Positions 14,201 to 64,000 of a stretch of 64,000 nucleotides of DNA are shown piece after piece. Both the position numbers and the translations under genes were made by a program. This DNA comes from Magallana gigas (taxonomy: Eukaryota): NCBI RefSeq assembly GCF_963853765.1, contig NC_088853.1, positions 52,948,001-53,012,000 of the forward strand. The letters run 5' to 3'. The notes under the pieces are model-generated. The model made no database searches and was not told where the DNA came from. It was given only the letters and a program-made list of their open reading frames with translations. How positions within the stretch are numbered: the first letter of the stretch is position 1; the number at the start of each line of letters is the position of its first letter.

Positions 14201-16434
14201 TTTTTAAGGCACATTCCAAATTCGGTCCAATGATTGTCATCAGCAGACAAGGTCAAAAAGATTGTAGGGGGTCCAAGACATCCAACCATTGACAGTAAAT
14301 TATAAAGTGCATTTTTGAAATAAGTAATAGTCCCTTTTATGTTCTTCATGAACATGTATGAATTTTCCAACACATCAGAGGCCTGGCTACTATGTCTTAT
14401 GTCAGCAGCTGTAAATCTGTCATCTCTACTTTTACACATACGCATATGAACCCCTATTTCACTTTTAAGCAATGAGACATTGTAAGAAACACACGAGTGT
14501 AACAAATATGTTAAGTTATACCTAAACTCTGCATGTCTATTATATAACCTATATTTGAAATACATGGAAGGATTAACATGGATATCTCTGTTATGTCTTA
14601 AACCATTAACTCCAAATGGAAAGAGCCAGGGAAATGCCATTTCTTCTCCTGATGTTAGATCAAAAATGTTAACAGGTTGATGAGTAGAGCTTGAAACCTT
14701 AATTACCCCCTCTCTTAAAAAGGATGAAGCATTGAGTTTAGGTGTATTTACATCTAAAGGTGTCAAAGAGGAATAGTTAAAATTGCTATCTAAATGAGAT
14801 GATGATTCATACCCATTTAACAATTCATTATTTAGATCAGAAAGTATGTCAATACTTTGTTCAAGTTTGATTTCCTTATACAGTGGGTTGTTTTCTATAA
14901 GCCACGTAAGAGCATCTTTCAAATTTTTGCAACTGATAAAGTGTTTATTAGTGACGGCTGGTTCACTATGTAAAAAATGCACAGATAAAGTTGCATTTTC
15001 TTTAAAATTTCTGGGCAACTGATTAGCTATTTCCTGTACATTCATTGGCAAGTTTAGCACCAATCCCTTCTCAGCATACTGTCCACCGGGTAAAATATGA
15101 ATTGACAAAAAAACTTGAATTAAGGAAATCATGCGTTTCTCTAGTAATGATAGTTTTCTCAGTTCTGTTGGTACACGACCATTATCAAGGTTGTTAAGCT
15201 TAGTACTCAACGGACACATTTTATTTTGTTTTATTCTACCATGACAATAACGACAGAGAACATCATCATATGACAAGTTTAACATTTCTGCAGTAGCTGT
15301 AATTTGTTTCAGGTTAACTATCTGATCAGGAAATAAAATTCTATCACATCACCTGCAATAACTTGATGGCTTCTGTCGAATATGAAGTTCATATTCTGAA
15401 TTGTGAAAATCACAATTTAAGAATTCCACTGATGGTTCTAATGTTTCTACTGTACAAGTGTAACCTACATTAGTCATATTAAACCCATTAATTGTGTTGT
15501 TTTCATTTGCAACATCGGCATGATCAGAAATAATTGGAAATGTTTCTGCACATGTACTTACAAACATTTCATCTTGAGATGTGCGTTTTCTTTTACGAAT
15601 GGTGCTTTTTTTCAACTTAAAACTTTTTTCTGTCTGTTTTGCATATGAATGGAAAAAGTGAGGCTCAGGTTGCTGATGTACTTCATAATTAAAAATAACT
15701 GGGCTTAATTCATATGAAAATCCACCATAATCACGGTTTAAAAAATCAAGTATGCTGTGAATACTGTCAAAGTAAAGCAAAATTGCATTTCCAGATTCAT
15801 CCAACAAACCATCTTCATTTCTTTGATGTGAATCAAAAATAGCATACCTGTCATTTTCAAGATCACATATGACTGAAATAGTCAATCCCCTAGCTGTAAA
15901 CATTAAGTAAGGACTTATGATTGACGCCTGATACATGGAATTTTCAAGAGTATTTTGTCCGAATTCAAATTCATTATTGCCACCTACCCTACCGATATCG
16001 GTTTGAATTTCATAATCAGGAGAGTGCATGCTATGCGGCATCCAATCTCGTAGAGACCTTGGTAAATCATTGTGTGTAAGATATCCCGAAACACCCCGTA
16101 CTCTGGCAATATATGCGTACAACGATGTACCTTCGTTTACTAGATTATCTATATCACTAGAGGTAACATCGTTTACCCATGTTTGTGGGCGATCCCTCGA
16201 CATGCCAGTTAAGACTACAAGAGCTAAAAATGCAATAGCTGTACTTTGAAGTCCATTGAAAGGACAAAACTTTTCAATTCCTTGATGAATTCTACCCATT
16301 ACGTGTCTTACCATTTTGTCTGCGCCGATCTGACAGTTCCCACCAACTCGATTTGCCGCCAAATTCTTCCGAAAACAATGGAAAGTAGTCTTGGTCATTA
16401 AACAGCTTCGATTTGGTGTGATAAAGTCATGCAT
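11292..16434 (-). pseudogene. Helitron RepHel protein with an N-terminal herpes-tegument-like (C76/VTD) deubiquitinase domain; inactivated
   Basis: Rep motifs PPTIFLTLS, RIEFQNRGSPHMH (HUH) and YYVCSYLCK. PIF1 motifs GGAGTGKS, IIDEISMV, GDFFQLRPV, QFPLILCYARTIHKVQG and AYVALSRV. ORFs 16434-15349, 15285-13447 and 13416-12025 share one frame, separated by single stops (YCR*CDR, SS*EAAYR). Two further stops (12025, 11995) and a +1 shift in a T-run near 11970 precede 11921-11292. Confidence 0.93.
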
Positions 16435-17599
16435 CTGAATGATCGAGACTAGTCGAGAAGATTTACGGAATACTTCTATTTGGATGGAAATCGAACAAAA
16501 ACGATAACGTTTTATACTTTATTGATTCCTCAAGTAACTGTTTACGGCATAAAATAAGTTTAAAATCAGATATGTGTATCATCTATAATCAAAAATATAT
16601 TTGACATCATGTATATAAAACACAAAAATGTGTGTATCGTACGTTTTTATGCGATTACTAAAATTTATTTTTCTAAAAATAGGGACCTGTCGCTTTGTCC
16701 CTAGTAAATAATAAGCAATTTTATATATTCCATATAAAAAGGTTTATATTTTAAATGATGCACTTTATGGAAGTAAAAATAGATCTTATCTTGTAATTTT
16801 TTAAGAGAAAGAACCTTCTAATGTACAATCTATTTAATGTATAGTTAACTTTCAATTCTGAATAACTTCTCCCTCCTCAATCCCATACACCAAAACTTAA
16901 ACTTATATGTATAGAGCAGCCCGGTCCTCCGGGCTGCAATAAATTACTAAGCCTACCTTATTGTTAATATTAAATCCAAGAAACCCGAACAAATTATAAG
17001 TACCACCCCGCACGGACTGAATGAAATACACAACTAGCCTAACAGGTTTCCCAAGTTAAATTTAGAACAAAAGAAACGGAAGGGAGAATCGAGCTATAAA
17101 CAAGACTATGAACGAAACGATGAACGAGACAGGAAACGAAGACTGGGGCCCACCTATCTACCCAGGGGAGTGAGTTGACTCGAACCTTAGAGAAGATTCC
17201 ACGTCAACCACCGGATTTAAGTAAAATGTAATTTAGCTCGAACTGGTGTTTTCCAAATGATAATGTAAAACTACGAAACTGTCCGAATGTAAAAAAAAAA
17301 CCTAGAAAAACAATTAATATATAGAAGTGCAAAAAACTTTGAATTCCATCCTCATTATATTAACAATGACGAAAAATAAATGCCCGGCATAAGATGTAAA
17401 GAACTGCAATATATATAAGGTGTTAAAAAAAATATGAAAATTATTAGTAACAACTGTATTTTTAAAATTTCAAGATAATTCCAGAATGTCCAAAAACTCT
17501 AAATAGTAACCTTGTATCTGCATAAAACAGGGATAACCTCATGTCTTATAAAAAATTCTTATAAATTAAATGTGTATTTAAAAAAGATTTAAACGTTTT

Positions 17600-18950
17600 A
17601 TAAAATGCAAGCCTAGTGCAGAGGAAATATCACAATTTGATATCAGGAATATAGACAAAAATGCTAAAACAGGATATATCTTAGAGGTAACAATTGAGTA
17701 TCCAAGTCATTTGCATGATTTGCATAATGATCTCCCATTAGCACCAGAGTCGTTATCTATCATAATGGAAGATCTCTCTCCTTACTGCCATGAACTGTAT
17801 AAAAGTCTTCATAAAGGGAAAACTGAGGGGGAAATTTCGAAAAAACTCGTTCCTACACTTCGAACAAAGGAAAAATACGTTGTTCACTATAGAAACTTAC
17901 AATTCTACCTTCAGCAAGGACTCATTCTGACAAAAATACATCGTGTTATAAGCTTTGAGCAGGAGGCTTGGCTTAAGCCATACATCGAATATAACACTAA
18001 AATGAGACAGCAGGCACAGAATGACTTTGACATCTCCCTTTATAAATCATACAACAATATCGTTTTCGGGTAAGTGTTTGAGAAAATTATCATGAAAATA
18101 TAGATGGTTGATAAAATAAAACTAGAGTACCATTGTAATATATGTTTTTTTTAATGTCATTTCAGAAAAACCATGGAAAATATAAGAAACAGATTAAATT
18201 TTAACCTAGTTCATGCAAAAAAAACCCTTCAAAAGCTGGTTAGTAAACCGAGTTTTGAGAGCTTTACTATCTTCAATAAAGATCTCGTTGGAGTAAAAAA
18301 CAAAAAGGTCAAACTTTTGCTTAACAAACCCATCTACACACTATGGTGGGAATGCAAAGTTGCTGATGACAGATACAGATTCCCTGTTTTACAGGTATGT
18401 CATACTCGGACTTATTGGTGCATTTTGTTATTTATTAAGAGTCAATATTGTTTTATACATCTTATTTTATTTCTTGTTTTGTAGGTTTGAAGTTAAAGAT
18501 ATGTATAAAGAGATGAGTAAACATATTAATTTGTTCGATACATCAAACTATCCTAGAGATCATTTTCTGTTTAGTGAAATAAACAAGAAGGTTGTTGGTA
18601 AGATGAAAGATGAAACTGCATCTCAGCCAGTAATGGGATGTGTTGAATTACGACCAAAAATGTATTCATTCATTGTTTACAATGAGGAAAAAACCCAAGT
18701 GAAAAAAGCAAAGGGAATCGCCAAATCTGTTGTTAACAAAGAATTAGCATATCAAAATTACGTGGACTGTCTATTAAACTGTAAATTAGAAAGACATACA
18801 ATGAACTCTATACGGAGTGAAAATCATAATCTGTTTCTTAAAGCTATCAACAAAATTTCCCTGTCTTCCTTTGACGATAAACGATGGTGGTTGAAGCCTA
18901 ATGGTATTGAAGGTTATTCATATGGACACTTTAAAATCCCTGATAATTAA
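17600..18950 (+). pseudogene. polB: Polinton/adintovirus-type protein-primed family B DNA polymerase, C-terminal part, with two introns
   Basis: Motifs GYILEV.IEYP..LHDLHNDLPLAPE, KSYNNIVFG|[42 protein letters not shown] and LSSFDDKR. Introns 18070-18165 (GTAAGT..TTTCAG) and 18395-18484 (GTATGT..TAG). A deletion with frameshift lies near 18337. Confidence 0.9.
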
Positions 18951-29377: not shown

Positions 29378-30931
29378 CCAAAGCATCCTTAGCCTCAGGG
29401 AATTCAAAGTGTGAAAATTTTGCAAAGGGAGATAATTAGGAATTTATGAAAATTTTCGAGAAATTTTCAAAAATCTTCTTATGAACCATAAGACCAGGAA
29501 AGCTAAAACTTGTGTGAAAGCATCCTCAGGTAGTGCAGATACAAAATTGTGAAATTCATGACCCCCGGGGGTAGGGTGGGGCCACAATGGGGGGTCGAAG
29601 TTTTACATATGAATATAAAGAGTAATTCTATAAAAATCTTCTTCTCAGAAACAAATCGGCCAGAAAAGCTGAAACTAGTGTGAAATCCTCCTCAGGTAGT
29701 GTAGATTCAATGTTGTGAAAATCATAACCTCCAGGGGTAGGGTGGGGCCACAATGGGTGGTCGAAGTTTTACATAGAAATATATCTTCTTCACATAAACT
29801 GATCAGCCAGGAAAGCTGACACTTGTATGGAAGCATCCTCAGGTAGTACAGATACAAAATTGTGAAAATCATGACCCCCGGGGGAAGGGTGGGGCCACAG
29901 TTGGGGGTTGAAGTTTAACATATGAATATATAGAGTAATTCTTTAAAGATCTTTTTCTCAGACACTAATTAGCCAGGAAAGCTGACACTTGTGTGAGAGC
30001 ATCCTCAGGTAGTGTAGATTCAAAGTTGTGAAAATCATGCCCCCCGGGGGTAGGTTTGGGCCACAGTGGGGGGTTGAAGTTTAACATATGAATATATAGA
30101 GTAAATCTTTAAAAATCTTCTTCTCAGAAACTAATCAGTCAGGAAAGCTGAAACTTGTGTGAAAGCATTCTCAGGTAGTGTAGATACAATGTTGTAAAAA
30201 TCATGACTCCCGGGGGTAGGTTTGGGCCACAATGGGGGGTCGAAGTTTAACATATGAATATAGAGTAAATCTTTAAAAATCTTCTTCTCAGAAACTAATC
30301 AGCCAGGAAAACTGAAACTTGTGTGAAAGCATCCTCAGGTAGTGTAGATACAATGTTGTGTAAAAATCATGACCCCGGGGGTAGGTTTGGGCCACAATGG
30401 GGGGTCGAAGTTTAACATATGAATATAGAGTAAATCTTTAAAAATCTTCTTCTCAGAAACTAATCAGCCAGGAAAGGTGACATTTGTGTGAAAGCATCCT
30501 CAAGAAATGTAGATTCAAAGTTGTGAAAATCATGCCCCTGGGGTGGAGGGTGGGGCCACAATGTGGGGTCGAAGTTTATATAAAGTAAATCTTTAAAAAT
30601 CTTCTTCTCAGAAACTAATCAGCCAGATTATTCTTTATAATTGTTAAGACTTTGGCCCCAGGACAATTCTTTGGCCTCACAAGAAGGTTCAGAGTTTGAT
30701 GTAGGTTTATATCACATATATAAACTATTGTGAAGGATTTTTTTGAGAACTGCAATACTCAACATATGATATGACTATAAAATCATCCTGTTAGAAATGG
30801 GACTTGTTTATAAACATAAGGATATCTAGGGGAAAATGTATTTTATTTATACAGGATCTACATGTATTGTACATTATCTAGATAGTTTGTATTATGACTC
30901 CATTAAGCTGATTTTATCATACCTATTGTTC

Positions 30932-38682: not shown

Positions 38683-39068
38683 CTGAGTGTAGGTCTTAAC
38701 CTCAATCACTTTACGAATTAAGGGAATGTCCGTATGGTATCTGGTCACATGGACCACACTGACCGAAACAGAACTCATCTTTAATAATTCCAACAGAATC
38801 TAGCAAACGAATGAGAGCTTGACGGTAATGCGCTGCAATTTATCAACTTGGTACCTAAATGACCGCTGTTGCCTAGTTTCGGCAGTTAGATATGACGTCA
38901 TTTTCAGTTATGACGTCAGAATCTTGTACTTGAGTCCGCGCTAAGAGTTAAGCTAGGCTCTTCTAGCCAGGCTACCATGACAAACGGGTTTAAGCAATGC
39001 TTACTTCATATAGAGTCTTATAGAGTGCAAAACATTTATTCGTTTTTTTTAATGGTAGAAATAAAAAA
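38683..39068 (-). promoter_or_regulatory. Diverged inverted copy of the viral RING-gene promoter (two CRE palindromes, TATA-like, Inr) plus its coding start
   Basis: Reverse complement aligns with 59510-59830. TGACGTCA at 38893-38900 and 38911-38918. ATG 38778 encodes MSSVSVSVVHVTRYHTDIPLIRKVIEVKTYTQ, followed by a GTATGT donor. Confidence 0.8.
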
Positions 39069-39121
39069 ACAAAAACAAGGGCACCGCTAAGCGGAGCATC
39101 CCCTCGCGTCATGAGTTATTG

Positions 39122-50954: not shown

Positions 50955-51463
50955 GTCAACACTGCGTCGGATAAACATAGCATCAATGTCGACCCGGAAG
51001 AATGTCAACACATCGGTGTTGACATTGTTCCGCAACCTTCTGGTTTGGTATGATCTGCTTACTGAATGTCGTTTTTCTTGGTATTATTCGAAAGATTGAC
51101 ATTTAATTGTAAAAAAAACCCTCTGCTTTGGTTTCTTTAAACTTATCTGCTTTCGTGTTTTTATCTTTGGAAGGAGGGTACCCTCCTAGGAAGTATATAT
51201 CGCCACCTTGATAATCATAGTGAAAATGTCGACACGCATATTTTTTGACTTTCGTTTAATAATTCTAATTTTATAAGAATAAAAGAATGAGTGCAAATGT
51301 TAAAGTAGTAAAGAATTGATATAACCTGAAGATATCACAATGATTTTTTCAGTAGTGTTTAAAAGACTTTGGAATTTCTATTTTAACAGGCTCTAAAACC
51401 GGCATTCAAACTGTATATACATTTTGTGACGTCAGGCGGTTTATTTAGCTGGAAAACAATGGT

Positions 51464-54400
51464 CACTGTCGTGTATCCGCGCCGGTAGTGACATGTTTGG
51501 ATAACGTGAAAATGGCGGCATCGTTCGTTTCTTGATAAGTTTTCGTGTTATTTAACGCTTACATTGTTAACTTTTACATTAATGAGATCGTCAAATCTAT
51601 TTAAAAGCATATTCAATCTTTAAATTTCTACGAAGTGTATGTGAAAATTATGTAAATAGGCAGTTTATGTCGATTAATTGTGAACAACGGAACAGGTTTG
51701 GATGACCTTGTTTTTCCAAATAGGATCGGTTTGGATGCGCGTCTGATACGGTTTGGATGTGGTTAATATATAAGAGTTTAAACTGTTCTTTTACTTATAT
51801 TTTCGCGAAGGGGATAGTGCATCGCTACTGTGCGATTACCATGCCCTCACTGCAAAGCATGCTTTCAATATTATGGAGATCGTCGTGTGACATTTGACCT
51901 TTGAATTCACATTGTTTAAAGAAATAAACATACACGTTGAAAGACTTGTATATTTAAGTCAACAAAACTTTATATAAAGTAATTTGAATTTCAATTTTAC
52001 ACAATACAAGCTCAAAATAAGTAAACTTGTCTTAATTATAAAAATTGCATACAGAGTGTTTTACAGACATGTTAAGTCTGTTGCATAATCATTCAATCGA
52101 TATTAATTTAGAAAGATTCAGCCTTACCAAAATCTTTACGACACAAATATAAACATGTGTTTACGACAGTTTTGATTAAGTTATGAGGCTAACTTTATAT
52201 GCTGTAAACGATGTCTGGAAAAAAAAAATTCAAAAGAGATCAGTCAAAAGACAGAATTATTATACCAACTCCAATATCAGCCCGAGGACCGTAGGCCCGA
52301 GGGGTGATATTGGTCAAGGGCTGATGCAGGCTGTGATATGGAAAAGGGGTATCTATTATCATATTTATTACATACTTAGTAAAATGAACTTGAACAATTT
52401 GATTTTAAATATCATGTGAAAGTAGTATGTACATATATTATATAAAAATATATGATCTAATTGTTTTAATAAACATATAGCTACTGAACTGGAATTTCCC
52501 CGGGCTTTAAAAGCTAACTGCTCCAAAACATTTGCTAGCATTTGAAGTTTTCAACTGCACTTAAAAATGTCGACTGTAACAAATGTTTTATATTTAGTCT
52601 GTAAACATGTAGAAATGCCAGCACGAAATGGGCAGACGAGTTCTGCAGGGGGTGTGATACGGATCCATATGAGCCCTAGGGCTAATAACCTGTATCAGCC
52701 ACGGAGGCCGATGCGAGTTGTGTGATGTCATCTGTATCACATATGCCAAAAACCTGTATTTATTACTATTTATATACACTTGTCTAATTTTTTTAATTAA
52801 TAATTGAAATGTCTCCAAACAACTTTTTAGATTGCAACAGCCTTAAAACCGCGCTTTGGCAAATTTTTACGATGACATTTTTATTATTATACTTTCATGT
52901 TTAATACCAACGCGAGTTTTGTATTTTTCTGCAGTATCGCCACCTTAAATTCCCACACGAGTCACCAAAGAAAGAATTTTACTTTTCAATAAACTAAATT
53001 ATAATGTTGTAAATTTTGTTATTCGTTCATTTTCTACGCATGCGCTGTACTTAGGTGCATATGTCCTCTTCGTAAGCATTAGCTTCCATGATTTGTCATT
53101 GCAGTACAAAAGAACTAACTATTGGTTATGGATTTTAACGAACATGTTCATTGTTTTATTTTACATGTACAAAATTATAAACAGAATAGCAATATACATT
53201 GGAAATGAAATCAGCGCAATGTAAAATACCGGTATATTGTGTAATCAATTTTATTATTTTAGTTTGTTCATTGAAAAAATCAACAAAACATCTTGATCAG
53301 TAATAGCGAGCGCAGCGAGGCGGCGCGAAGCGCTGCTCGCGTAGCGAGCTCCATAGACAACGAGCTCCATAGACAACGTGTACGAACGGAGGAAATTTTT
53401 AACGTTTTAATTTCCTGCGATACATTTAGAGGTGGATCAAGCATATGTACTGGATCATGTAGGAAGTACTCAGTATCAGTGTTAACGGTGGCTGATTAGT
53501 TTTGTTTTGATGATTTTTTTTTTGCTTAGTAAATACACATGCAAGGTCCATGCTAAAGTTATTGTCATATTGATCCAATCATATATGCATACGTTAGGTA
53601 GGTGACAAAAAATTATTAAGAAAGAAAGGTCCAATCATTATTAGATCTACGTGCAGCCACGTCATTTTGTAATGAATAGATAAATGAAAAGAATTAAACT
53701 GTTAAAATATCTACCGGTACATGTATTTGTTATATAGTTGCATATGTGGTCAAATAATATTGGATATCACACACTATAAGAAAGGGGTGAGGGCACATGT
53801 CTACAACGCGTATATAGCGTACAAAAATTAAAAAGATTTAAAACAAAATTAATGTCACTGAGGAAAATAATTAAAACACGGGTTACAACAAGGAACAAAA
53901 TGAGAAATAACAAACACAATTTATTTTTACTGATTTTAATGATCATTATTAAAAGGTAAAGAAAAGATAAAACATAATTGTATCTACATAAAAAAACGGC
54001 GTTGTGTTTATCAAAATATTTTAATACAATGTAAGTCTGTTTAACATTTTACTAAGGCTCAGTGGTAGTTTGTTTAAGTGTATAAGACTAGGAAGGGGCC
54101 ATTGGAATAAAAGTTTGATAATTTCGGGTTCCTTGCGGTGGTAAAAGTTTTCGAGACAAAGCCAAAGTTTTTTGGTTAGGGCAAGTCCACGGGTTGCATT
54201 TAACAATGATGACAGAAGTGTGGTTCCTTCTGCGCTCGCCCCAACGGTCACACCGTAAAACATATTATACATAGATACATATTTATCGTTTTGATTTTCT
54301 GGTGAAAATTATGATTTAAAAAATGGCGACGTTTACTCAGGTCTCGTCATCACTTGGATTTTTGGACCAACTATTTTTAACAACAGAGTAAATATGACTT

Positions 54401-54981
54401 AGCAGACCCACAGTTGCACACCGATAAAAGGCAAACTGTTTCATTTTTGTCTGAAATATAAAAAATGCTATATCTTAAAACTATCTAAACCGTACCATTT
54501 GCACAATTTATATTTTAGCATCCAAACCGGAATAATTCGTTAATCCAAACCGTACTTTTTATTTAGCAGGTGCATGAAGTTATTGCTATTTTTATACATA
54601 TTAGTGTATTAAAAATATATTGAAGTGATTTCATTTGGTTAGAGTAATCTTTCAAATTAATTTTGGCTGCTTCAGATTTTCAGGTTGTGTTATATTATCT
54701 ACGTTATCTCGAAATAGATCTTGGTTTTAGCGTTAAAATGGCACATTAACGATTGATATTCCTACAAATAAGTCGTTTTTATTTACGATGAACAAAAATA
54801 ACACTGGCTCTTATCAACTGCAAAACCGTAAGAAAAATATGAACGACTGTTACGATTGTTTTAATTAATATTTACCTAATTGTCGATAGATAAAAGGACA
54901 CAACACTCATTGCTTTTGCAATGGATACGCCATTTTCACGGTATCCAAACATGTCACTACCGGCGCGGATACACGACAGTG
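51464..54981. mobile_element. 3.5-kb non-autonomous TIR element with CAC..GTG ends and a 5-bp TSD (Transib/RAG-like signature)
   Basis: ~54-bp TIR cactgtcgtgtatccgcgccggtagtgacatgtttggata(a/c)cgtgaaaatggcg with one mismatch; TSD atggt at 51459-63 and 54982-86; three ggtttggat subterminal repeats mirrored on each arm. Confidence 0.85.
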
Positions 54982-56892
54982 ATGGTGGACTAGGCTAGTT
55001 CGCTTCAGGAGAATTGTTATTGTTTTCATGAATTGTGCGAGTTCAATGGAGTATTTTAAGGTTACTTTTTGTTCATTGGTGTTGTTAACGTAAGTATCTT
55101 CATTACTTGTATTCTTGTGATCATGCTTTTAGCTATATTATTCGTATTTTCGGTTGGTAATACCTCCTTTGTTTACACATGAACTACACGCTAGAAAGTA
55201 ACAGTTATTTTTCTGGGTTAAATTTTCTCTTTATCACCACTATTCCTCATTTGAATCTGCTGTAAAAAAAAAATTAGTATGAAATTGTGTACCGTGAATT
55301 ACATCGATTTGTGTCGTTTAATTAATTTTAAAATATAATATGTGTGTCAATAGCATACTTTGTTTGCCCATAATATTGGAATGGAAATAGTTGAAGTTGT
55401 CATACAAATAACAAAACACAAGAGATCTAAAATAGGATTTTTACCGATCAATATTTTCTGATTTTGCAATTTTGTTTGAATACAAGAATGTATTTCAGAT
55501 GCAAGAAAATTATTCGATAAATGCAAAAAAATTGTTCATAAAATTATCATTTTCATGTGACAATTATCTTTAACGATCAAAGAGCGGTTTAATTTTTTCT
55601 TTATTTGTCATACATTTATCCATCGTCTTAATTTGCCAAATATATGAAATATAAACCCTCAGCTTTTAATATTTCACGTCTAATTTTCAAGAATATGAAC
55701 CATTTAAAATAGTCCATACATGCATTTTGCGTGAAATCAATATAATATAAAAACATTAAATGGATTGTTTTGTGATAAATATACTCTCACACGACGTGTT
55801 TATTTTGTAATTCATTGTAAAAGAAATATCTTCAATTAATACTAAAACATAGGTGAATGTGAGTTTTTTTCTTCATTTACAGTTTTTACAAAAATATAAT
55901 GACGTTCTTAACAGAATAAGTTTTCATTCGCAAAACTGTAGTCTATTTTTTGAAAAAAACTAAAAATGTTCATTCAATGAGAGGAGAAAAAAAATTTGGT
56001 TTTTTTTTTACTTTTTGTTGTTGAAGCAGGGTGTTGCTGAAAATTTTAAGCTTTTTTTTTATTGGGTATAACTGGCTTTTTAATCTCAATTTTTTCTAGT
56101 TTACCTTAACTGTCAGAGATATTTTCTACAGAATGAAGATTGAGTAAAATTGGAATCTCTTAAGTTATTGATTGTGATAAGACAATGAACTTAAATTGTT
56201 ATATAATCTTTCATTTCATAATTTTCACTGATGTATTCTTTAAAAAAAATAGCACTTTTTAATAGAGTAACACTTTTGTTTTTCAAAGGTTGTGAAGTCG
56301 GATGTGGAATTGCCCCAAGTTTCATTACCAGTAAGTGTGTTTTATTACAGTATGTATATAACGCAGAGACTAGGGTAATGATTCATTGTCTTTATACAGA
56401 TTTTGGTGAGAAGTATTATATATATTTTTAATATGTTTTCTTTCTGTAGTCCTCTAAATGTAGTGGAGAGAACAAGCCATTGGGAAGAAAAATCAAGAGT
56501 TCCATTATGCAGAGTGATGATGTAAGTCTTGTTAGAATACACTGATATTAATTTAAACATGCAAGCCCTATGTTGTAATGGAAATTAATAGAAAAACTAA
56601 AATTTGACACAAAGATTGCTTGTGACCTGTAAATATGTCTGACTGAGCTTTCAAATTGGTCATTTGTGCAAGTTTGAGGCCACTGTAAAAAAATGTGCAT
56701 CCGTTACCATCAAGTAGAGGCATTCAGGATTATCATGCAAAAATTTGTGTATATTAAAGTTGCAAAGTTGTAAACTACGTTAGTGATTGACCGACCCATT
56801 TTGTAGAAGTTGTAACATTTTAAAACTGTTGGAAACAATAATGTACATTGTAAGTGAGACTTGATCTTCATGCAATCCACCTAGATACACCC

Positions 56893-56988: not shown

Positions 56989-57786
56989 AGTACTCGAACA
57001 ACTTTTTTTTGGTTCCTGTAATGACCTTACAACTTAATTTGTGTGTTGTGTCATTATTTTTAGCTGCCAGATTTGTGTTCCTCGAAAGAAGAATCTCCAT
57101 GTATAAAAGAGGAAGAGGTATTTGTATAGATTTAGACAATAAAATGATTTCTTTGGTGATACATTTTAATATATTTAACGGTGGCAAATTTGCAGATCTG
57201 CAATGATAGCTACCTTCATAACCCACATGAATCATCAAAGAGAACATTTTATTGTTTATATTTACATCTTTCTTTAACATCTTTCTTGATAAATGGATTG
57301 TTAAAAGTAAGTAAAATTAGCTAAAGTTATAGCCAATGTACATCAGAACGTTAGCTAAAAAAAAACAGCCACATTTTTCTTTTGCGAATTTGCAAGTCTG
57401 ACATTATGCTTATTTCGTAGAGTCCATGATTTTTATTAGGTCGCTGTTAGTTTAGACCAATCGATAAACAGGGCTAGTAGATTTAAGTCCTATCAGTTTC
57501 TACAGAGCTATGAATTACAATTAATTTCCATTAGAAATATAAGGAATCATTCTTGATGAATGTAAATATATGCAAGTAAGTAGTATAAGGCGCCTAGCTT
57601 GGGGGTTCAACTGAGTGCACTTTTTATGCAAATGAGGTAAAAAACTGGGTTTAAGGTTGAAATGAGTTTTATTGAACAAGAACATCAAAAATCATGAAAC
57701 AAGTGAAGAAATAAGCGCAAAAAAAATAGAAAACATAGAATGACTCTCTGGAAATTACATTGTTCAGAAATTCTCTTGCAATTTTG

Positions 57787-58506
57787 TCAGATAAAGTTCA
57801 TACGAGTGGGAGAATCCACGAACACATTTTTTTTGTTGACTTTCATCATACGGCCTGGTTTTTTCTGCTCCGTTTTCATTTCCTCGTCCCAATCTTCATT
57901 GGATTTCTGGGTTTTTGCTTTTTTCTTGTCTTTGACTCCTTTCCCTTTGTTGGTGGGAGGGTGATTTTCTTTTTCTGGGCAGTCCTGAGCCTCGTGTTCT
58001 TGGTCTGCCCAGTATTTGTTTTTGAGATTTTCTGGGCAATCTTTCATCCAATGGCCTTCCTTTTTGCAGATGAAACAATTGTTGTTTGAAGGTCTACTGT
58101 AGTTAGTACTCTGCTGGGAAGTCGAGCCCCGGTTGTTTTCCTTTGTAGGGCAATCCGGCGAATAGTGACCTGGTTCTCCACAGGTGTAGCATGAGCCGGG
58201 TTTTTTCCCCTGTGTAGTTTTTGGCTGCGTAGTTTTGTTCATTTCGTCCAGTTTGTTTAAGATCAAGCTAGTATGTTTTCCTATTTCGTCACTCATCAGA
58301 TGGAGACTGTTGAGAATTCCTTCCTGGGTCGTGGTAATGATCCCAAAGTCTTCCTTACTGATCACTGAATTGTAAGCAGCCATCTCTAAGTTGACTGGGT
58401 CCTGGGTCTCTGTCACTAGTGATGGATCGTAATAGCCCATTCCACTAGACATAGGATCTTGGCTATCGAGGAAGTTTTTAGACGTCATGATTTGCAATGT
58501 GCACAA
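57787..58506 (-). CDS. CCHC zinc-knuckle protein (two intact knuckles, one degenerate), acidic N-terminus and Lys-rich C-terminus
   Basis: CYTCGEPGHYSPDC and CFICKKEGHWMKDC (CX2CX4HX4C); open 239-aa frame; the true start may be ATG 58488 or 58452. Confidence 0.8.
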   Translation of the reverse strand: MCTLQIMTSKNFLDSQDPMSSGMGYYDPSLVTETQDPVNLEMAAYNSVISKEDFGIITTTQEGILNSLHLMSDEIGKHTSLILNKLDEMNKTTQPKTTQGKKPGSCYTCGEPGHYSPDCPTKENNRGSTSQQSTNYSRPSNNNCFICKKEGHWMKDCPENLKNKYWADQEHEAQDCPEKENHPPTNKGKGVKDKKKAKTQKSNEDWDEEMKTEQKKPGRMMKVNKKNVFVDSPTRMNFI

Positions 58507-58516
58507 GTCCTAGAGG

Positions 58517-58538
58517 GGCGCGAAATATGGGTATATAA
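58517..58538. promoter_or_regulatory. Putative divergent promoter with an E2F-type site and a TATA box
   Basis: ggcgcgaaa (reverse complement TTTCGCGCC) at 58517-25 and tatataa at 58532-38, between head-to-head ORFs. Confidence 0.35.
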
Positions 58539-59011
58539 TGAACTGCTTTTTTAATATTTTTTATAATTCTATCAAGGAAAAAAAATTGATGATGAGCGAA
58601 ATATTGAGTCTTACCTTTGAGGGTTATCAATTAGTAACAAAATGGAATGCAGATATGAACGAGGAAAAACAGAAAAAAATATTGAGGGTGTTAGCTTTGG
58701 CTCGGAACATCACCAGTTTGAATTTTCCTGCCCACATACTGTTGATATTAGCAGTAGAAAATCCTTTCCCCGGAAGACTAGCCACAATTTATTGGATTTG
58801 CGAGGGGGCCAAGATTCAATTACTCGAGAAATTAACAGGCGTCTCCTACAAGGATTATCAGAACTTCGGGTATCTGAGATGCATGTTCACCCATCAGGGG
58901 AGAGCTCGTCGTCGAGTGATTTCACAAATAGACAATATGAAGATGGTGGCTTTGGAATTTCTATACCTGAAATTGAAAACTCAGGCCATAGACGAAGAAA
59001 ACGGAGTGTAA
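58538..59011 (+). CDS. Hypothetical protein (157 aa; likely start ATG 58589/58592)
   Basis: Open frame inside a gene-dense viral-type cluster; no recognised motif. Confidence 0.5.
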   Translation: MNCFFNIFYNSIKEKKLMMSEILSLTFEGYQLVTKWNADMNEEKQKKILRVLALARNITSLNFPAHILLILAVENPFPGRLATIYWICEGAKIQLLEKLTGVSYKDYQNFGYLRCMFTHQGRARRRVISQIDNMKMVALEFLYLKLKTQAIDEENGV

Positions 59012-59169
59012 AGTTTAATATGGACATTCAAGTGTTGGAAATACCATACGAAGATAGGACAAGTGAATGGATGACTTTGGCAAATGACCGATTTCGTTTT
59101 CAAAGAAGAATTCTACAGACTGCAATTGTTTTAGAGCCTATGTTAAAAAGACATTTGTTAAATAATTAA
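58642..59169 (+). CDS. GADD34/ICP34.5/DP71L-like PP1-recruiting (eIF2-alpha phosphatase adaptor) protein
   Basis: C-terminus RRKRSVKFNMDIQVLEIPYEDRTSEWMTLANDRFRFQRRILQTAIVLEPML has an RVxF-type motif followed by W..LA.DR.RF.RRI. The start codon is uncertain (58642 or 58880). Confidence 0.85.
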   Translation: MECRYERGKTEKNIEGVSFGSEHHQFEFSCPHTVDISSRKSFPRKTSHNLLDLRGGQDSITREINRRLLQGLSELRVSEMHVHPSGESSSSSDFTNRQYEDGGFGISIPEIENSGHRRRKRSVKFNMDIQVLEIPYEDRTSEWMTLANDRFRFQRRILQTAIVLEPMLKRHLLNN

Positions 59170-59189
59170 TTTGTGTTTAAAAAAGACAA

Positions 59190-59540
59190 TTGTTCCAATG
59201 TATAATTTGTTTGAAAATAATAAAAATAATTTTATTTCATATAATTTCTACCATTTAAAATAACGAATAAATGTTTGTTCCAATGTTTGTTTGCTGAAAA
59301 ATAATAAAATTTTGACATTTTATGTCATAGTTTATTTAATTTCTACCATTTAAAAATAACGAATAAATGTTTGTTCCAATGTTTGTTTGCTGAAAAATTA
59401 AAAAAAATAATTTTATTTCATAGGTTTTTTAATTTGTACCATTTAAAATAACAAATAAATGTTTGTTCTAATGTTTGTTTGCTGAAAAATTAAAAAAAAA
59501 AATTATGTCATAGTTTTTTATTTCTACCATTTAAAATAAA
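59190..59540 (+). repeat. AT-rich ~90-95-bp tandem repeat (three full units plus partials)
   Basis: ttt(c/g)taccatttaaaataac(g/a)aataaatgtttgttc..atgtttgtttgctgaaaa begins at 59245, 59340, 59433 and 59521. Confidence 0.85.
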
Positions 59541-59657
59541 TGGTTTGCACTCTATAAGACTCTATAGGGAGTTTGCATTGCTTTAAACCCGGTTGTCATG
59601 GTAGCCTGGCTAGTAGAGCCTTGCTTAAGACTTGGCACGGATTCAAGTACAAGATTC

Positions 59658-59727
59658 TGACGTCATAAATGAAAATGACGTCATATCTAGTGATAAATAG
59701 CAGCGCACTTCCGCCCAGCACTCATTC
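59658..59727 (+). promoter_or_regulatory. Pol II promoter: two CRE palindromes, TATA-like ataaata and Inr tcattc
   Basis: TGACGTCA at 59658-65 and 59676-83, ataaata at 59693-99, tcattc at 59722-27, ATG at 59759; conserved in the paralogous module at 38.7-39.0 kb. Confidence 0.65.
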
Positions 59728-59758
59728 GTCTGCTAGATTTCTCGTAAATCGCCCAAAG

Positions 59759-61004
59759 ATGAATTCATTTGGAATTAGGCATTTTTATACGGATGTTCCT
59801 AATATTCGAAGAGTGTTGGAGATTGTAACATACCAGTGGGATGGGGAGAGCTACGTAAGGATTTCTTCGGAGGCTGTGAGTCTGTTTCAGGCCCGGGATG
59901 CTCCCCTGTCCCCCCTGGAGAGGCAAGGAAGAGAGCAGGACTTGGGGAGAGTTGACCTCTTGCCACCGCCGCCGCCTCCCCCAGGACCCGTTCCTTCACT
60001 GGAGGACGTCGTTGCGATGATGGAGAGGAGGCAGCAGGAGCAGCGGCAGTCAGCCCCCTCGACGCCGTCGCCTCCCCCACCGCCAGCGCCCAGAGTCAGT
60101 AGGGGACCGGCAGCACTCTTCCGGCGGGTCCGGAGTGTTGCCAGGAGGGCCATTCCCTACCGGAGGGGTGGCCCGGGGGTGCGATTTTCTTTGCCTCCCA
60201 GGTCTGCGGCGCCATCGCCTTTTGTGAGCCCTCCTAGGAGAGTTCCGGCCATTCGGCCGCCAGGACCGGGTATCACCGTAAGTAATGTTTTAATATATTT
60301 TACATTTATAATAATGTGATAGTATGATTGATTTTTGGTATAATATTTTAATTGGTTTTTTTTTTAGACCACCAGGGAGCCCATCGTGATTCCGGACTCA
60401 CCGGAGAGTCCCGACCCCTCCCCACCTGCCAGTCCGGGGGGTTACTCTCCGGTGAGCCCAGGCTACAGTCCGGCACCATCGCCGCCAGGGAGCCCTCTGC
60501 GACCAGCGCCATACCGCCCTGCACCACCACCAGCTGCAGCGGCCTTGGGGAGATCTCCAAGCCGACCGGTCCCACCCAGCCGTCCTGCCCCTCAGCTGCC
60601 CTCGGGATTTTTTTGAGAACCATTTTGAGAACGGCCACCCCTCCCCTGTACCTCCATACGAGGAAGCCGGAGGATCCGAGGCGGCACTTCACCATCGTCC
60701 CCAGCTGGGGGGTGAAGGTGGCTGAGGAGGAGGAGAGCCGGGGGGAGTGTGTCATCTGCTTCCGAGAAGACGCCCACATGCAGGTAAATAAAACATGAAA
60801 TGTTTTGTTATAATTTCATAATAAAATGCTTTGTAATTACAAAATACTTTTTTTTGAAAAAAAGGTATTTATGGATTTGCTTTTTCATTTTTCCAGATCA
60901 AGTGCCGCAGCTGCAGCCAGCAGAGGGTATGCTGCAAGTGTGTCCCGGGGGTGTACCGGAACATGAACCCCTGCCCCCTGTGCCGGTCCTTCGGAGAGCA
61001 GTAG
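59759..61004 (+). CDS. Spliced Pro/Ser/Arg-rich protein with a C-terminal all-Cys RING finger (putative E3 ligase); one -1 frame break
   Basis: Exons 59759-60277, 60368-60783 and 60897-61004; phase-0 introns GTAAGT..TTTAG and GTAAAT..TTCCAG. Spliced end CVICFREDAHMQ|IKCRSCSQQRVCCKCVPGVYRNMNPCPLCR. The frame shifts at a T7 run (60608-14). Confidence 0.8.
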
Positions 61005-61022
61005 TGGCGACTGCTAACAAAC

Positions 61023-61087
61023 AGCCCTTTTCAGGGCTAGCGCCACAGCCCTTTTAAGGGCTACCACCAACGGCCCTTTTCAGGGCA
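61023..61087. repeat. Three tandem mini-hairpins AGCCCT-TTT(C/A)-AGGGCT
   Basis: Copies at 61023-38, 61047-62 and 61072-87 (24-25-bp period). Confidence 0.8.
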
Positions 61088-61184
61088 AATAGAAAAAATG
61101 TGTACAAAAAGAAAAACACCAGTGGTCACTTACATGCACACACTTAAATAGAAAAGGTGAAGGTTTTTTATTTCATAAGTGAAG

Positions 61185-61829
61185 ATGTATTCTTACGATA
61201 CACTAGACCCTTTTAAATTGAAACATGAATTTACCATGGTGGTGGCGGGTCCTTCAAAATCGGGAAAAACACATTTTGTTAAAAAGTTAGTAGAAAATAG
61301 ACATTGGATTTCCCCTCCCCCCGAAAAAATCATATGGTGTTACCGAGAATGGCAACCCGCTTACGAATCTTTACAAGATCAAGTCAAGTTTATACGCAAT
61401 ATTCAAGAAGACGACGAGAAATTAGTGGCTGATTTCAGTATTCGTCACTTGTTAATTTTTGACGATATGATGGGAGGCAAAGCCATCGAGTCTATCGTCG
61501 ATTGGTTTACTCGCAAAGCTCATCATAGGAATACCAGTGTGATTTACATTACTCAAAATGTATTTGATCGAGCAAATCAACATCGTACTATTAGTCTCAA
61601 TGCTCATTATTTGGTACTGTTTAAAAATCCTCGAGATAAATCTCAAGTGACGGTGCTGAGTCGACAATTAGATATGCCTCATTTAATGTCTGCTTATCAA
61701 GAGTCTATTAGTATTCCTCACGGTTATTTGCTTGTAGATCTCAGTCCACAAACTCCAGATGAATTGAGATTAAGAAGTCAAATGTTCGATACCCTAAGTG
61801 TCTATATGCCTCGAGAATATAAATATTGA
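61185..61829 (+). CDS. Polinton/adintovirus genome-packaging ATPase (A32/FtsK-HerA-like)
   Basis: LKHEFTMVVAGPSKSGKT (Walker A), PPPEKIIWCY.EWQ, LLIFDDMM (Walker B), HHRNTSVIYITQNVF, RTISLNAHYLVLFKNPRD; intact. Confidence 0.92.
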   Translation: MYSYDTLDPFKLKHEFTMVVAGPSKSGKTHFVKKLVENRHWISPPPEKIIWCYREWQPAYESLQDQVKFIRNIQEDDEKLVADFSIRHLLIFDDMMGGKAIESIVDWFTRKAHHRNTSVIYITQNVFDRANQHRTISLNAHYLVLFKNPRDKSQVTVLSRQLDMPHLMSAYQESISIPHGYLLVDLSPQTPDELRLRSQMFDTLSVYMPREYKY

Positions 61830-61867
61830 ACACACGAGGAGTTACCTTCATTTGGATTGAGTTCATC

Positions 61868-62902
61868 ATGGCACGACAAAACAAAGTGTTGAGACTTTTG
61901 AAACTTTTATATGGAGAAAAAGATCCACAGAAAAGGCAGGAAATCATCGAATTAAGCCGTAAAACCTTAATGAAATGGTTTCTGATAGGAGCTAAGAATT
62001 TACTGAAAGGAACTATTCCTGTCGACAAACAGACTCAACGGTTTATTGAAAAACACCGGGATGATTTGAAAGTGATTGCTGACAAAAAAGTCAACGAAGA
62101 TAACAGATTGAAAGCCGTATTGAAACGAGGAGGAGCTGGGTTTTTAGGAGGGGTCATCATTCGTAATTTATTGAAATGGAATTTGAAAAAAGAAAAAATG
62201 GCTCAGCCTGGAAAGAGCAAATCGAAGAAAGCCATCAAAAAGAAATTAAGCAAAAAAGATTTTGTGAAGACTCCTCCCCTTAGGAAAGACTTGCCTGATT
62301 GGGTTCAGGAGCAAGTAGACTTGTATCGTCAAGATCAAAATCAGAAAAATCAAGGTGATTTAGAAGCCACTCTTCCCTATGCTGAGGATGATACCCCAAC
62401 TTTTCCCATTATCAATGCTAGGGCTATCCAGAAAATGGATAGGGCCATGCAAGGTCCTATAGGAGCGGCCAGAACCTCAGATAATGTAATGACTTCTACC
62501 CCTATTAAAGCAACTCAAGCTCCCTCTTTGTTTGATGATGTCATTACTATTGATCAGTCCTCTATTAAAGCACCATCTACCCCTACACTCTCGAAAAAGT
62601 CTCCAAATGAGTCACCGGCCTTAACATATTTCTGTCCCCACGATGGGGTCGGATTCAGACTGAAGGAAAATTACGATCGTCACTTGGCTACCGCTCATAA
62701 CCCCGCTTGGATTGAAAGTCAATCGAAAAGGAAAATAGTTCCTGTACCAGACATGTCTAACTTTACTTTAGGTTTCAAGAAACCTAAACTAAATTATTAT
62801 TGTCCCGACTGTCACATGGCTTTTAGACTTAAAAGGGAATACGAAAAACATAGACAAAGATATCACCCAGTAGCTGAACCATGGGTCCAGAATAAAGGAT
62901 AG
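61868..62902 (+). CDS. Conserved Polinton-type basic protein (NLLKG.IP…GG.GFLG) extended with two C2H2 zinc fingers
   Basis: N-terminal AKNLLKGTIPVDKQTQRFIEKHRDDLKVIADKK…KRGGAGFLGGVI; C-terminal CPHDGVGFRLKENYDRHLATAH and CPDCHMAFRLKREYEKHRQRYH; open frame. Confidence 0.7.
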   Translation: MARQNKVLRLLKLLYGEKDPQKRQEIIELSRKTLMKWFLIGAKNLLKGTIPVDKQTQRFIEKHRDDLKVIADKKVNEDNRLKAVLKRGGAGFLGGVIIRNLLKWNLKKEKMAQPGKSKSKKAIKKKLSKKDFVKTPPLRKDLPDWVQEQVDLYRQDQNQKNQGDLEATLPYAEDDTPTFPIINARAIQKMDRAMQGPIGAARTSDNVMTSTPIKATQAPSLFDDVITIDQSSIKAPSTPTLSKKSPNESPALTYFCPHDGVGFRLKENYDRHLATAHNPAWIESQSKRKIVPVPDMSNFTLGFKKPKLNYYCPDCHMAFRLKREYEKHRQRYHPVAEPWVQNKG

Positions 62903-63174
62903 AGTGTCTTTGGTCATCCTATAAAAGACAACCATAGATGAATTTTTTATCAGTTTTTAATGATGGCTTCTGATATAAAGAAGAGAAAAGAGGCGACAGA
63001 AAAGAAAGAAAAGAAAGGGATGAAAAAGGAGAAAAAAAAAGAACAATTCTTGTGAATGTAGATTGAGACCTCACATGCCCGTGTTGAACCTATTACTCTC
63101 TCCTGAAAGTACCCCTGTCTTAAAAAAATCAAGTGTTAAAACATTGTAGTAATGACTGCATTCATAAGATTTGC

Positions 63175-64000
63175 GAAATTAAAAATTTATTAAAAATCTT
63201 CTTCTCGGAAACTAATCAACCAGGAAAGCTGAAACTTGTGTGGAAGCATCCTCAGGTAGTGTAGATTCAAAGTTGTGAAAATCATGATCCCTGGGGGTAG
63301 GCTGGGGCACAATGGGGGATCGAAGTTTTACATAGGAATATATAGAGTAAATATTTAAAAATCTTCTTCTCAGAAACTAATCAGCCAGGAAAGCTGATAC
63401 TTGTGTGGAAGTATCCTCAGGTAGTGTAGATTCAAAGTTGTGAAAATCATGACCCCCAGGATTAGGGTGGGGCCACAATGGGGGGTCGAAGTTTTACATA
63501 GGAATATATAGAGTAAATCTTTAAAAATCTTCTTCTCAGAAACTAATCAGCCAGGAAAGCTGAAACTTGTGTGGAAGCATCCTCAGATAGTGTAGATTCA
63601 AAGTTGTGAAAATCATGACCCCCTGGGGTTGGGTGGGGCCACAATGGGGTGGTCGAAGTTTTACATAGGAATATATAGAGTAAATCTTTAAAAATCTTCT
63701 TCTCAGAAACTAATCAGCCAGAAAAGCTGACACTTGTGTGGAAGCATCCTCAGATAGTGTAGATTCAAAGTTGTGAAAATCATGACCCCCAGGGGTAGGG
63801 TGGGGCACAATGGAGGGTCGAAGTTTTACATAGGAATATATAGAGTAAATCTTTAAAATTCTTCTTCTCAGAAACTAATCAGCCAGGAAAGCTGAAACTT
63901 GTGTGGAAGTATCCTCAGGCAGTGTAGATTCAAAGTTGTGAAAATCATGATCCCTGGGGGTAGGGTGGGGCCACAATGGGGGGGGGGTGTTAAAGTTTTA
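63175..64000 (+). repeat. Cg170/HindIII-type ~166-bp satellite array (~5 monomers, runs off the window)
   Basis: Marker (c/t)atcctca at ~63248, 63414, 63578, 63745 and 63910; same monomer as 29400-30627. Confidence 0.92.

Follow-up and report, generated by a model that had tools for sequence, protein, structure and literature searches.

It is an open question whether animal Mavericks/Polintons are viruses or transposons with leftover capsid genes. Some viral proteins, such as DP71L and ICP34.5, undo translational shutoff in the host. Accessory anti-apoptotic genes (Bcl2, IAP) have already been noted in adintoviruses (PMC8502044), and adenovirus E1B yields its 19K and 55K proteins from overlapping frames of one mRNA (PMC9663300). 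Here, we analyze a Polinton segment within 64,000 nucleotides of the oyster Magallana gigas genome (contig NC_088853.1), referred to as the window, where an earlier note made from the letters alone had proposed a young virus-like element carrying host-modulation genes. The window contains a damaged oyster Polinton reduced to its left 5.6 kb, and we propose, with a probability of roughly 0.68, that the family of this copy keeps a likely host-countering block in which a DP71L-like gene lies over a possibly Bcl-2-like gene.

A DP71L-like adaptor gene in an oyster Polinton

The block and the markers that place it in a Polinton have the following positions in the window:

57579..57722 (+): left terminal inverted repeat (TIR), beginning AGTAGT; the right TIR is absent
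58529..58539 (+): TATA box GGTATATAAT, ~55 nt upstream of open reading frame (ORF) A
58589..59011 (+): ORF A, 139-140 aa, all-helical; AF2 pLDDT 76 and 79 (two models)
58642..59169 (+): ORF B, 175 aa, with a ~115-aa N-terminal part over ORF A (+2 frame), then a C-terminal DP71L/GADD34-like core
~59002-59016 (+): RSVKF motif of the ORF B core
~59056-59112 (+): R..W..D-R-x-R-F..R-I motif of the ORF B core, then a helix
61185..61829 (+): A32/FtsK-like packaging ATPase, 214 aa; Pfam Pox_A32, 120 genome matches

A profile of the adaptor core, built from 10 Polinton copies with no host row, was searched against PDB sequences and matched DP71L (E-value 1.1e-13), PPP1R15B (3.8e-11), and PPP1R15A (1e-6), with nothing else up to an E-value of 1 (8/8 rows). 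The PP1/eIF2-alpha adaptor predicted in the earlier note is thus borne out by a host-free profile. Residues F, P, E, R, W, D, R, and I are invariant across the 10 rows; in the RVxF-type motif the F is invariant and the V is found in 9/10 rows, with the window copy reading R-S-V-K-F. The second motif in the window reads R..W..D-R-F-R-F..R-I. The core aligns with DP71L without gaps, whereas PPP1R15B has a one-residue insert, and the linker where PPP1R15B has this extra residue has been tied to PP1 binding in a preprint on DP71L (10.1101/2025.02.28.640897). The Pfam cut-off for PF10488 is exceeded at 17 other non-host places in the genome. By motif membership, ORF B is a DP71L/GADD34-like PP1-eIF2-alpha adaptor, with a predicted function.

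An eIF2-alpha phosphatase adaptor in Polintons is apparently undescribed so far. We found no work linking Polintons/Mavericks to GADD34 or PP1/eIF2 in the open literature searched, and GADD34, ICP34, PP1, and eIF2 are absent from the text section and the supplement portion examined of the adintovirus study (PMC8502044), neither of which describes an overprinted gene. The 391 PP1/eIF2-motif proteins tabulated in the DP71L preprint (10.1101/2025.02.28.640897) could include unlabelled Polinton sequences.

Distribution of the adaptor among Polinton lineages

The adaptor accompanies Polintons well beyond this copy. The core has at least 67 matches in the genome. Of these, 52 have an ATPase match no more than 22 kb away, across approximately ten subfamilies; under a shifted null (2000), the mean is 3.3 and the maximum 11. 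Viewed from the other side, an adaptor lies within 22 kb at 50 of 107 ATPase loci; the genome match lists for both proteins are lower bounds. In 24 A-clade loci examined, a homolog of the CCHC gene at the left end of the block occurs in 22. Of the 24 loci, 18 had been picked by adaptor match and are not independent; of the 6 copies picked by ATPase match alone, 5/6 contained the whole block (CCHC, ORF A, PP1 core, and RING). The accessory genes therefore accompany the ATPase in other copies, and they are not single-copy host genes: the host PPP1R15 gene is located on C5, separate from the Polinton copies.

Six distant lineages (B-G), with ATPases ~35% identical to that of the window, have a stand-alone adaptor ORF of 70-135 aa, which in lineage C is just 250 bp inside the TIR. 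Outside the oyster genome, we identified 87 short adaptor homologs, either unnamed or annotated as "hypothetical protein." Among the best 80 of 96 metagenome loci, Polinton core genes are present in 24/80, and in 12/20 of those of at least 5 kb; at several loci the ATPase and capsid are only 36-43% identical. Scanning IMG/VR viral contigs with the adaptor profile gave 14 pattern matches, 0 of which were confirmed. The host PPP1R15 core is 32% identical to that of the window and is without the P-[YN]-E signature common to the Polinton copies. A tree of 40 adaptor cores groups the host core with another cellular-looking sequence, apart from the Polinton copies (100/93); the tree is otherwise mostly unresolved, with unsettled bootstrap values and one row (A3_L020) in the wrong frame, and one capture and several captures are indistinguishable in it.

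Several features of these loci stand apart from the block itself. A CARD (E-value 2e-12) is fused to PC4 domains (8.7e-16) at L027:6080-7063 and in relatives (L033, L036, L061, and L073). In lineages D, F, and G, the CARD-PC4 ORF directly follows the PP1 adaptor, and lineage E has a CARD ORF elsewhere; these ORFs were identified by domain search in lineage D and by likeness in the other lineages. A role of the CARD-PC4 protein as a death-fold decoy is possible. One contig, C1 (~13% of the genome), holds 76/107 ATPase loci and 44/67 adaptor matches. At L042 (C7:2.86 Mb) and similar loci, the ATPase is part of a 578-aa ORF that has a C2H2-like motif at its N terminus, and there is no adaptor match within 22 kb.

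Overprinting of ORF A by ORF B

ORF A and ORF B overlap by 122 codons in different frames in the window. Across four subfamilies the overlap extends over 121-152 codons, with ORF B starting 50-53 nt past the ORF A ATG in the +2 frame, and a fifth lineage that is only 30% identical in ORF A retains this layout (L068, L076, and L090). ORF A is 43-57% identical among the four subfamilies and the overlapped part of ORF B 27-47%. Given the ORF A protein and the codon usage of the element, the +2 frame would be open by chance with probabilities of 2e-5, 6e-5, 3e-6, and 7e-5 in the four subfamilies (2e-4 to 1e-3 under uniform codon usage). Core-gene controls have 4-11 stops per 100 codons in other frames, and the third frame of the A/B region has 12-16 stops per 120 codons in 14 copies, which were selected for ORF B being open from its ATG. 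Other copies of the region are broken by frameshifts. Three database proteins are frameshifted calls that contain both parts (P0122, P0141, and P0143).

All four subfamilies have the ORF B ATG in the same position, with the context aaaATGG in the window and RNNATGG in 3/4. A TATA motif is also found at a similar distance (~55 nt before ORF A) in all four, and one TATA promoter is likely common to both genes. We infer that a single mRNA yields A and B by leaky scanning. The earlier note had listed a 157-aa hypothetical protein next to the PP1 adaptor; both genes are real, but they overlap in different frames and the start had been misplaced. The first ATG of the 157-aa frame is inside the TATA box, so the start common to relatives is at 58589/58592. 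Starts giving a 157-aa or a 216-aa ORF were rejected, being situated in promoter sequence.

Possible Bcl-2 fold of ORF A

Those homologs of ORF A that carry a name are Magallana gigas entries, and the RNA datasets with matches are labelled oyster. ORF A had no match in Pfam, PHROGs, or PDB-sequence scans, its models returned nothing at an E-value of 0.001 with Foldseek against the pdb and viral sets, and the ESM Atlas gave only matches under 0.9. A wider structural search returned Bcl-2-family chains in 10/50, 15/50, and 14/50 rows, with best Z scores of 6.3-6.7. The family makes up 14/16 of the rows that span the whole model with at least 100 aligned residues, at a root mean square deviation (rmsd) of 3.3-4.1 A over 100-109 residues; the matches include F1L (Z 6.7, rmsd 3.4, 101 aligned), A179L (6.3), and BAK (6.2). 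Designed helical repeats rank at the top of the same search, and all Z scores are below 8.

When the ORF A profile was aligned to three host Bcl-2 proteins with hhalign, the match landed on BH1 (P 0.025), compared with a P of 0.83 for a CARD control. ORF A has G-R at the BH1 position, where the tryptophan of NWGR is absent, and the BH2 (GGW) motif is not visible in it. A predicted complex between ORF A and a BH3 peptide from a Bax-like host protein scored 0.00, computed without an alignment. We lean toward ORF A being a degenerate Bcl-2-fold protein.

Anatomy and condition of the element

The window copy is the left ~5.6 kb, about a quarter, of a Maverick/Polinton that begins with the left TIR at 57579 and breaks off at ~63195. 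The segment first delimited, 57787 to 62902, holds the cassette but leaves out the start of the element. Base 57579 is also the start of 4 other copies, each with unrelated flanks, and full elements with 6-bp target site duplications (TSDs) end in this terminus as well. Full-length relatives elsewhere in the genome are 21.0-21.8 kb long and have the same left block followed by integrase, pPolB, and other core ORFs. Both TIRs are present in 7 relatives, with a perfect 6-bp TSD in 5/7 elements checked, and the TIRs of two A2 elements are 99-100% alike. Pfam searches of a full relative recovered pPolB (PF03175, E-value 8.5e-57), rve (1.6e-10), and a chromo domain (2.6e-7), and in the window the A32/FtsK packaging ATPase was confirmed (Pox_A32, E-value 9.4e-7, 29 bits versus a cut-off of 22.8). 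Together, the termini, integrase, and pPolB of the relatives and the ATPase of the window uphold the Polinton identification.

The full relatives also have capsid-, penton-, and protease-type ORFs of fitting size, position, and conservation (467, 382, and 153-177 aa), labels that we assign tentatively from position. The capsid and penton ORFs had no match in any profile library scanned, and the protease-like ORF matched Peptidase_C5 weakly (E-value 0.049). The search for full-length copies proposed earlier thus recovered TIRs, integrase, and pPolB, but the capsid and penton labels are without library support and the protease is weak.

The remaining features of the segment are as follows:

57787..58488 (-): CCHC protein, 233 aa, two zinc knuckles, transcribed away from the cassette; Pfam zf-CCHC E-value 1.4e-12
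58508..58517 (no strand): site of a ~180-nt deletion, from comparison with sister copies
59190..59539 (no strand): 92-bp AT-rich tandem repeat following ORF B, ~3 copies, containing AATAAA motifs; present in sister copies too
59658..59699 (+): two perfect TGACGTCA sites and a TATA-like box ahead of the RING gene; kept in 5/5 aligned copies
59759..61004 (+): GC-rich gene for a proline-rich protein whose RING-like domain, with eight cysteines, is C-terminal; introns 60278-60367 and 60784-60896 (predicted GT-AG)
61868..62902 (+): 344-aa protein with a conserved N-terminal ~100 aa, a low-complexity middle, and two C2H2-like fingers
62960..63195 (+): stub of the next core ORF, where likeness to the full element stops
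63190..64000 (no strand): 165/166-bp satellite array, 9.2 copies, at the break and extending ~735 bp beyond the window

All six ORFs named in the earlier note are located where it placed them. The CCHC knuckle protein is supported by its profile match and likely binds nucleic acid. The 344-aa ORF has a C2H2 match below the Pfam cut-off (E-value 0.0047), an N terminus 91% identical in A2, and 23% identity to the ORF that comes next in the full element (pairwise E-value 5e-5), and is likely a structural core/virion gene rather than a host modulator. Profile searches of each ORF supported the CCHC protein and the ATPase, whereas PP1c_bdg (E-value 0.038) and C2H2 fell below their cut-offs. The satellite DNA does cut the element on the right, at ~63190, and a search of the next 20 kb on that side recovered no integrase, pPolB, other Polinton core gene, or right TIR.

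Two lesions mark this copy. At ~58515 it lacks ~180 nt that 5/5 sister copies compared have, and with them a TATA-like box oriented toward the CCHC gene. Near 60610, 37 nt that are present in 4/4 aligned sister copies and in one RNA-library contig are missing, and the RING gene is frameshifted; the ORFs, described as mostly open, are real, but this one is broken. Identity to sister copies of the A1 subfamily is 83-96% over most aligned blocks, and the eight A1 copies fetched are all truncated or broken too. A duplicate at C1:60.14 Mb is 98% identical, including the flanks, and has the same break point. Because of the truncation, the two lesions, the divergence from sister copies, and the duplicate with shared flanks, this is not the young, intact insertion that had been suggested. 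The young subfamily is A2, and the window copy is likely inert.

Other elements were observed in and around the window. A 3.5-kb stretch (51463-54982) is not in the 98% duplicate. The RING-gene promoter recurs on its own at 38797-39070 (-), as a ~270-bp copy (87%) that includes both TGACGTCA sites and a portion of the 92-bp repeat. Four ORF pieces of a Helitron Rep/helicase are found at 11295-16518 (-; Helitron_like_N E-value 1.6e-28, PIF1 4.4e-29), and broken pieces at 17582-18947 (+), without a Pfam match, presumably resemble the PolB of another Maverick-type element. A second 166-bp satellite array (7 copies) is at 29494-30626. An A3-subfamily Polinton with the same cassette (L040) has its TIR 3.2 kb left of the window and is oriented away from it.

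RING-like gene and expression

In subfamilies A1-A4, the RING-like domain has the spacing C-x2-C-x10-C-x2-C-x5-C-x2-C-x10-C-x2-C-R, ends in P-C-P-x-C-R, and has no histidine; zf-RING_2 matched two relatives below its cut-off (E-values 3e-4 and 0.11). A ubiquitin ligase is a slightly favored reading of this sequence. The TGACGTCA sites ahead of the gene we take to be of the CRE/ATF type. Homologs in A2 and A3 have no introns (452 and 378 aa). The two AT-rich GT-AG introns occur in A1 (window, L005, and L046-L048) and are absent in A2/A3, an intron gain or loss in a virus-like element. An alternative acceptor that restores an open spliced frame in the window was rejected, as it loses an SPDPS peptide conserved in relatives. 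The spliced RING protein of the earlier note therefore keeps its RING-like domain and two predicted introns, but its frame is shifted and no splice joint was seen in RNA.

For expression, ~1% of the reads of two raw RNA runs were examined. These gave 66 and 278 reads on the region, mostly partial, and ORF A/B are hardly covered. The poly-A ends coincide with A-runs in the genome and likely reflect internal priming. The RNA-seq check suggested earlier thus returned reads, but too few for expression, strand, or splicing.

Proposed mechanism and alternative explanations

The block is located between the terminal repeat and the packaging ATPase. We propose that one TATA promoter would produce a short-leader mRNA, on which ribosomes would initiate at ORF A or scan ~50 nt further to the ORF B ATG, giving both proteins. 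ORF B would bind host PP1 through its RVxF-type motif and present phosphorylated eIF2-alpha, with G-actin, as DP71L does (mechanism in 10.1101/2025.02.28.640897). Translation would then persist when stress kinases fire in the active phase of the element, which would be armed against translational shutoff. ORF A would probably damp Bax/Bak-type apoptosis, and the RING-like protein may, at little better than even odds, act as a ubiquitin ligase. A broader version, which we consider doubtful, is that animal Polintons widely encode minimal adaptors, that one oyster lineage has an E1B-like two-in-one gene with a Bcl-2-fold death blocker, and that the upstream ORF may be a stress gate. It is speculation, modeled on gating by upstream ORFs in host GADD34/ATF4 (PMC10743859), that eIF2-alpha phosphorylation could raise ORF B output with ORF A as the gate. 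Oyster PERK is reported to respond to poly(I:C) (PMC9680061).

Several observations weigh against a maintained host-countering block. On its own, the ORF B of the window reaches 14-16 bits on PF10488 (E-value 0.038) versus a cut-off of 26.1, and the RVxF motif is worn in some copies (L027, L046, and L048). The open-frame probabilities come from four subfamilies of common ancestry and cannot be treated as independent; among 32 core gene-frame controls, one also had an open run of 134 codons. No adaptor match lies within 22 kb of 57/107 ATPase loci, the long-ATPase lineage included. For ORF A, Z scores below 7 fall within the noise seen with helical proteins, and the Bcl-2 alignment received a probability of only 2% from hhalign. 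The RNA data count here as well: few reads cover the region and almost none the two ORFs, no splice joint occurs in the reads of either raw run, and contigs of two further RNA runs span the region unspliced and may be DNA.

The adaptor could be real and serve transposon life in germ or stem cells, with polymerase and integrase translated under stress and no infectious particle or arms race. Every copy seen is integrated, with TSDs, no relative was confirmed among IMG/VR viral contigs, and RNA is near silent, all as this explanation would have it. We nonetheless judge it unlikely, since relatives retain open ATPase, protease-like, and probable capsid ORFs and, in other lineages, the adaptor comes together with a CARD-PC4 protein; such a combination of counter-defense genes is a kit typical of viruses. 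Far less probable is a recent passive capture of host genes now decaying with the element. A host PPP1R15 gene exists and many copies are broken, but the host core is divergent, lacks the P-[YN]-E signature, and groups with another cellular-looking sequence, and the adaptor is present across deep lineages.

Two further alternatives concern the overprinted pair. ORF A may be an unrelated helical protein, making the E1B parallel one of layout only, and we regard this as a serious if disfavored possibility. The failed Pfam, PDB-sequence, Foldseek, and Atlas searches, the designed repeats at the top of structural rows with Z below 8, and the missing NWGR tryptophan and GGW all speak for it, while the predominance of the Bcl-2 family among full-span rows and the placement of the profile match on BH1, against the CARD control, speak for a Bcl-2-like fold. 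The N-terminal frame of ORF B could also be a passenger, with only the 60-aa core mattering and being made by splicing, by frameshifting out of ORF A, or from an internal start. Its overlapped part is less conserved than ORF A, and other lineages employ a 70-aa core alone; but neither a splice nor a frameshift late in ORF A would require 120 stop-free upstream codons, all four subfamilies preserve the ORF B ATG with its context, and they share no in-frame Met immediately ahead of the RVxF motif, so we consider a passenger frame improbable. The host-countering block remains our preferred reading.

The window copy itself is of little importance; the significance lies in the family. An adaptor kept across approximately ten oyster subfamilies and the Polintons of other samples is a sign of conflict with host stress/antiviral signaling, and if the proposal is true, the counter-defense kit argues for a real viral phase of these elements in animals. 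In addition, the family supplies many natural PP1-eIF2 adaptors of 70 aa on which structure-function relations can be studied, and it clearly exemplifies gene overprinting in a transposon-like element.

Comparison with known systems

The earlier note had likened the RING protein and the adaptor to the herpesvirus pair ICP0 and ICP34.5. ICP0 has an N-terminal C3HC4 RING. Like herpes simplex virus (HSV) 1 ICP0, the Polinton protein is long and proline-rich, has a zinc domain of RING type, and is encoded behind CRE-like sites, but its domain is C-terminal, has eight cysteines and no histidine, is below the Pfam cut-off, and was seen only in the A clades. The parallel is loose because the RING-like gene was not seen in the six distant lineages B-G that have the adaptor, three of which show a CARD-containing ORF next to it.

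With described Mavericks/Polintons (adintoviruses; sections of PMC8502044), the oyster family shares TIRs, a 6-bp TSD, integrase, pPolB, packaging ATPase, and a protease-like ORF, the window copy being only a quarter-length remnant. The likeness to adenovirus E1B is one of layout: in both, the genome is linear and protein-primed, and close to its left end a small helical, possibly Bcl-2-like upstream ORF contains the start of a second host-countering ORF that is read in a different frame. The second protein here is a PP1 adaptor, whereas that of E1B is a p53/ubiquitin-ligase partner, and Pfam scans gave no sequence link between ORF A and E1B-19K.

The closest parallel is with DP71L of African swine fever virus, HSV ICP34.5, and PPP1R15A/B, with which the Polinton adaptors have in common the RVxF-type motif, the R..W..DR.RF..RI motif, and the helix after it. 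Stand-alone Polinton versions of 70-77 aa are as short as DP71L (71 aa). Unlike DP71L and PPP1R15, the Polinton versions are carried on an integrating 17-25 kb element and bear P-[YN]-E-x-R and W-M signatures, and in the A clades the adaptor, whose activity is predicted, is fused to an overprinted N-terminal part of ~115 aa.

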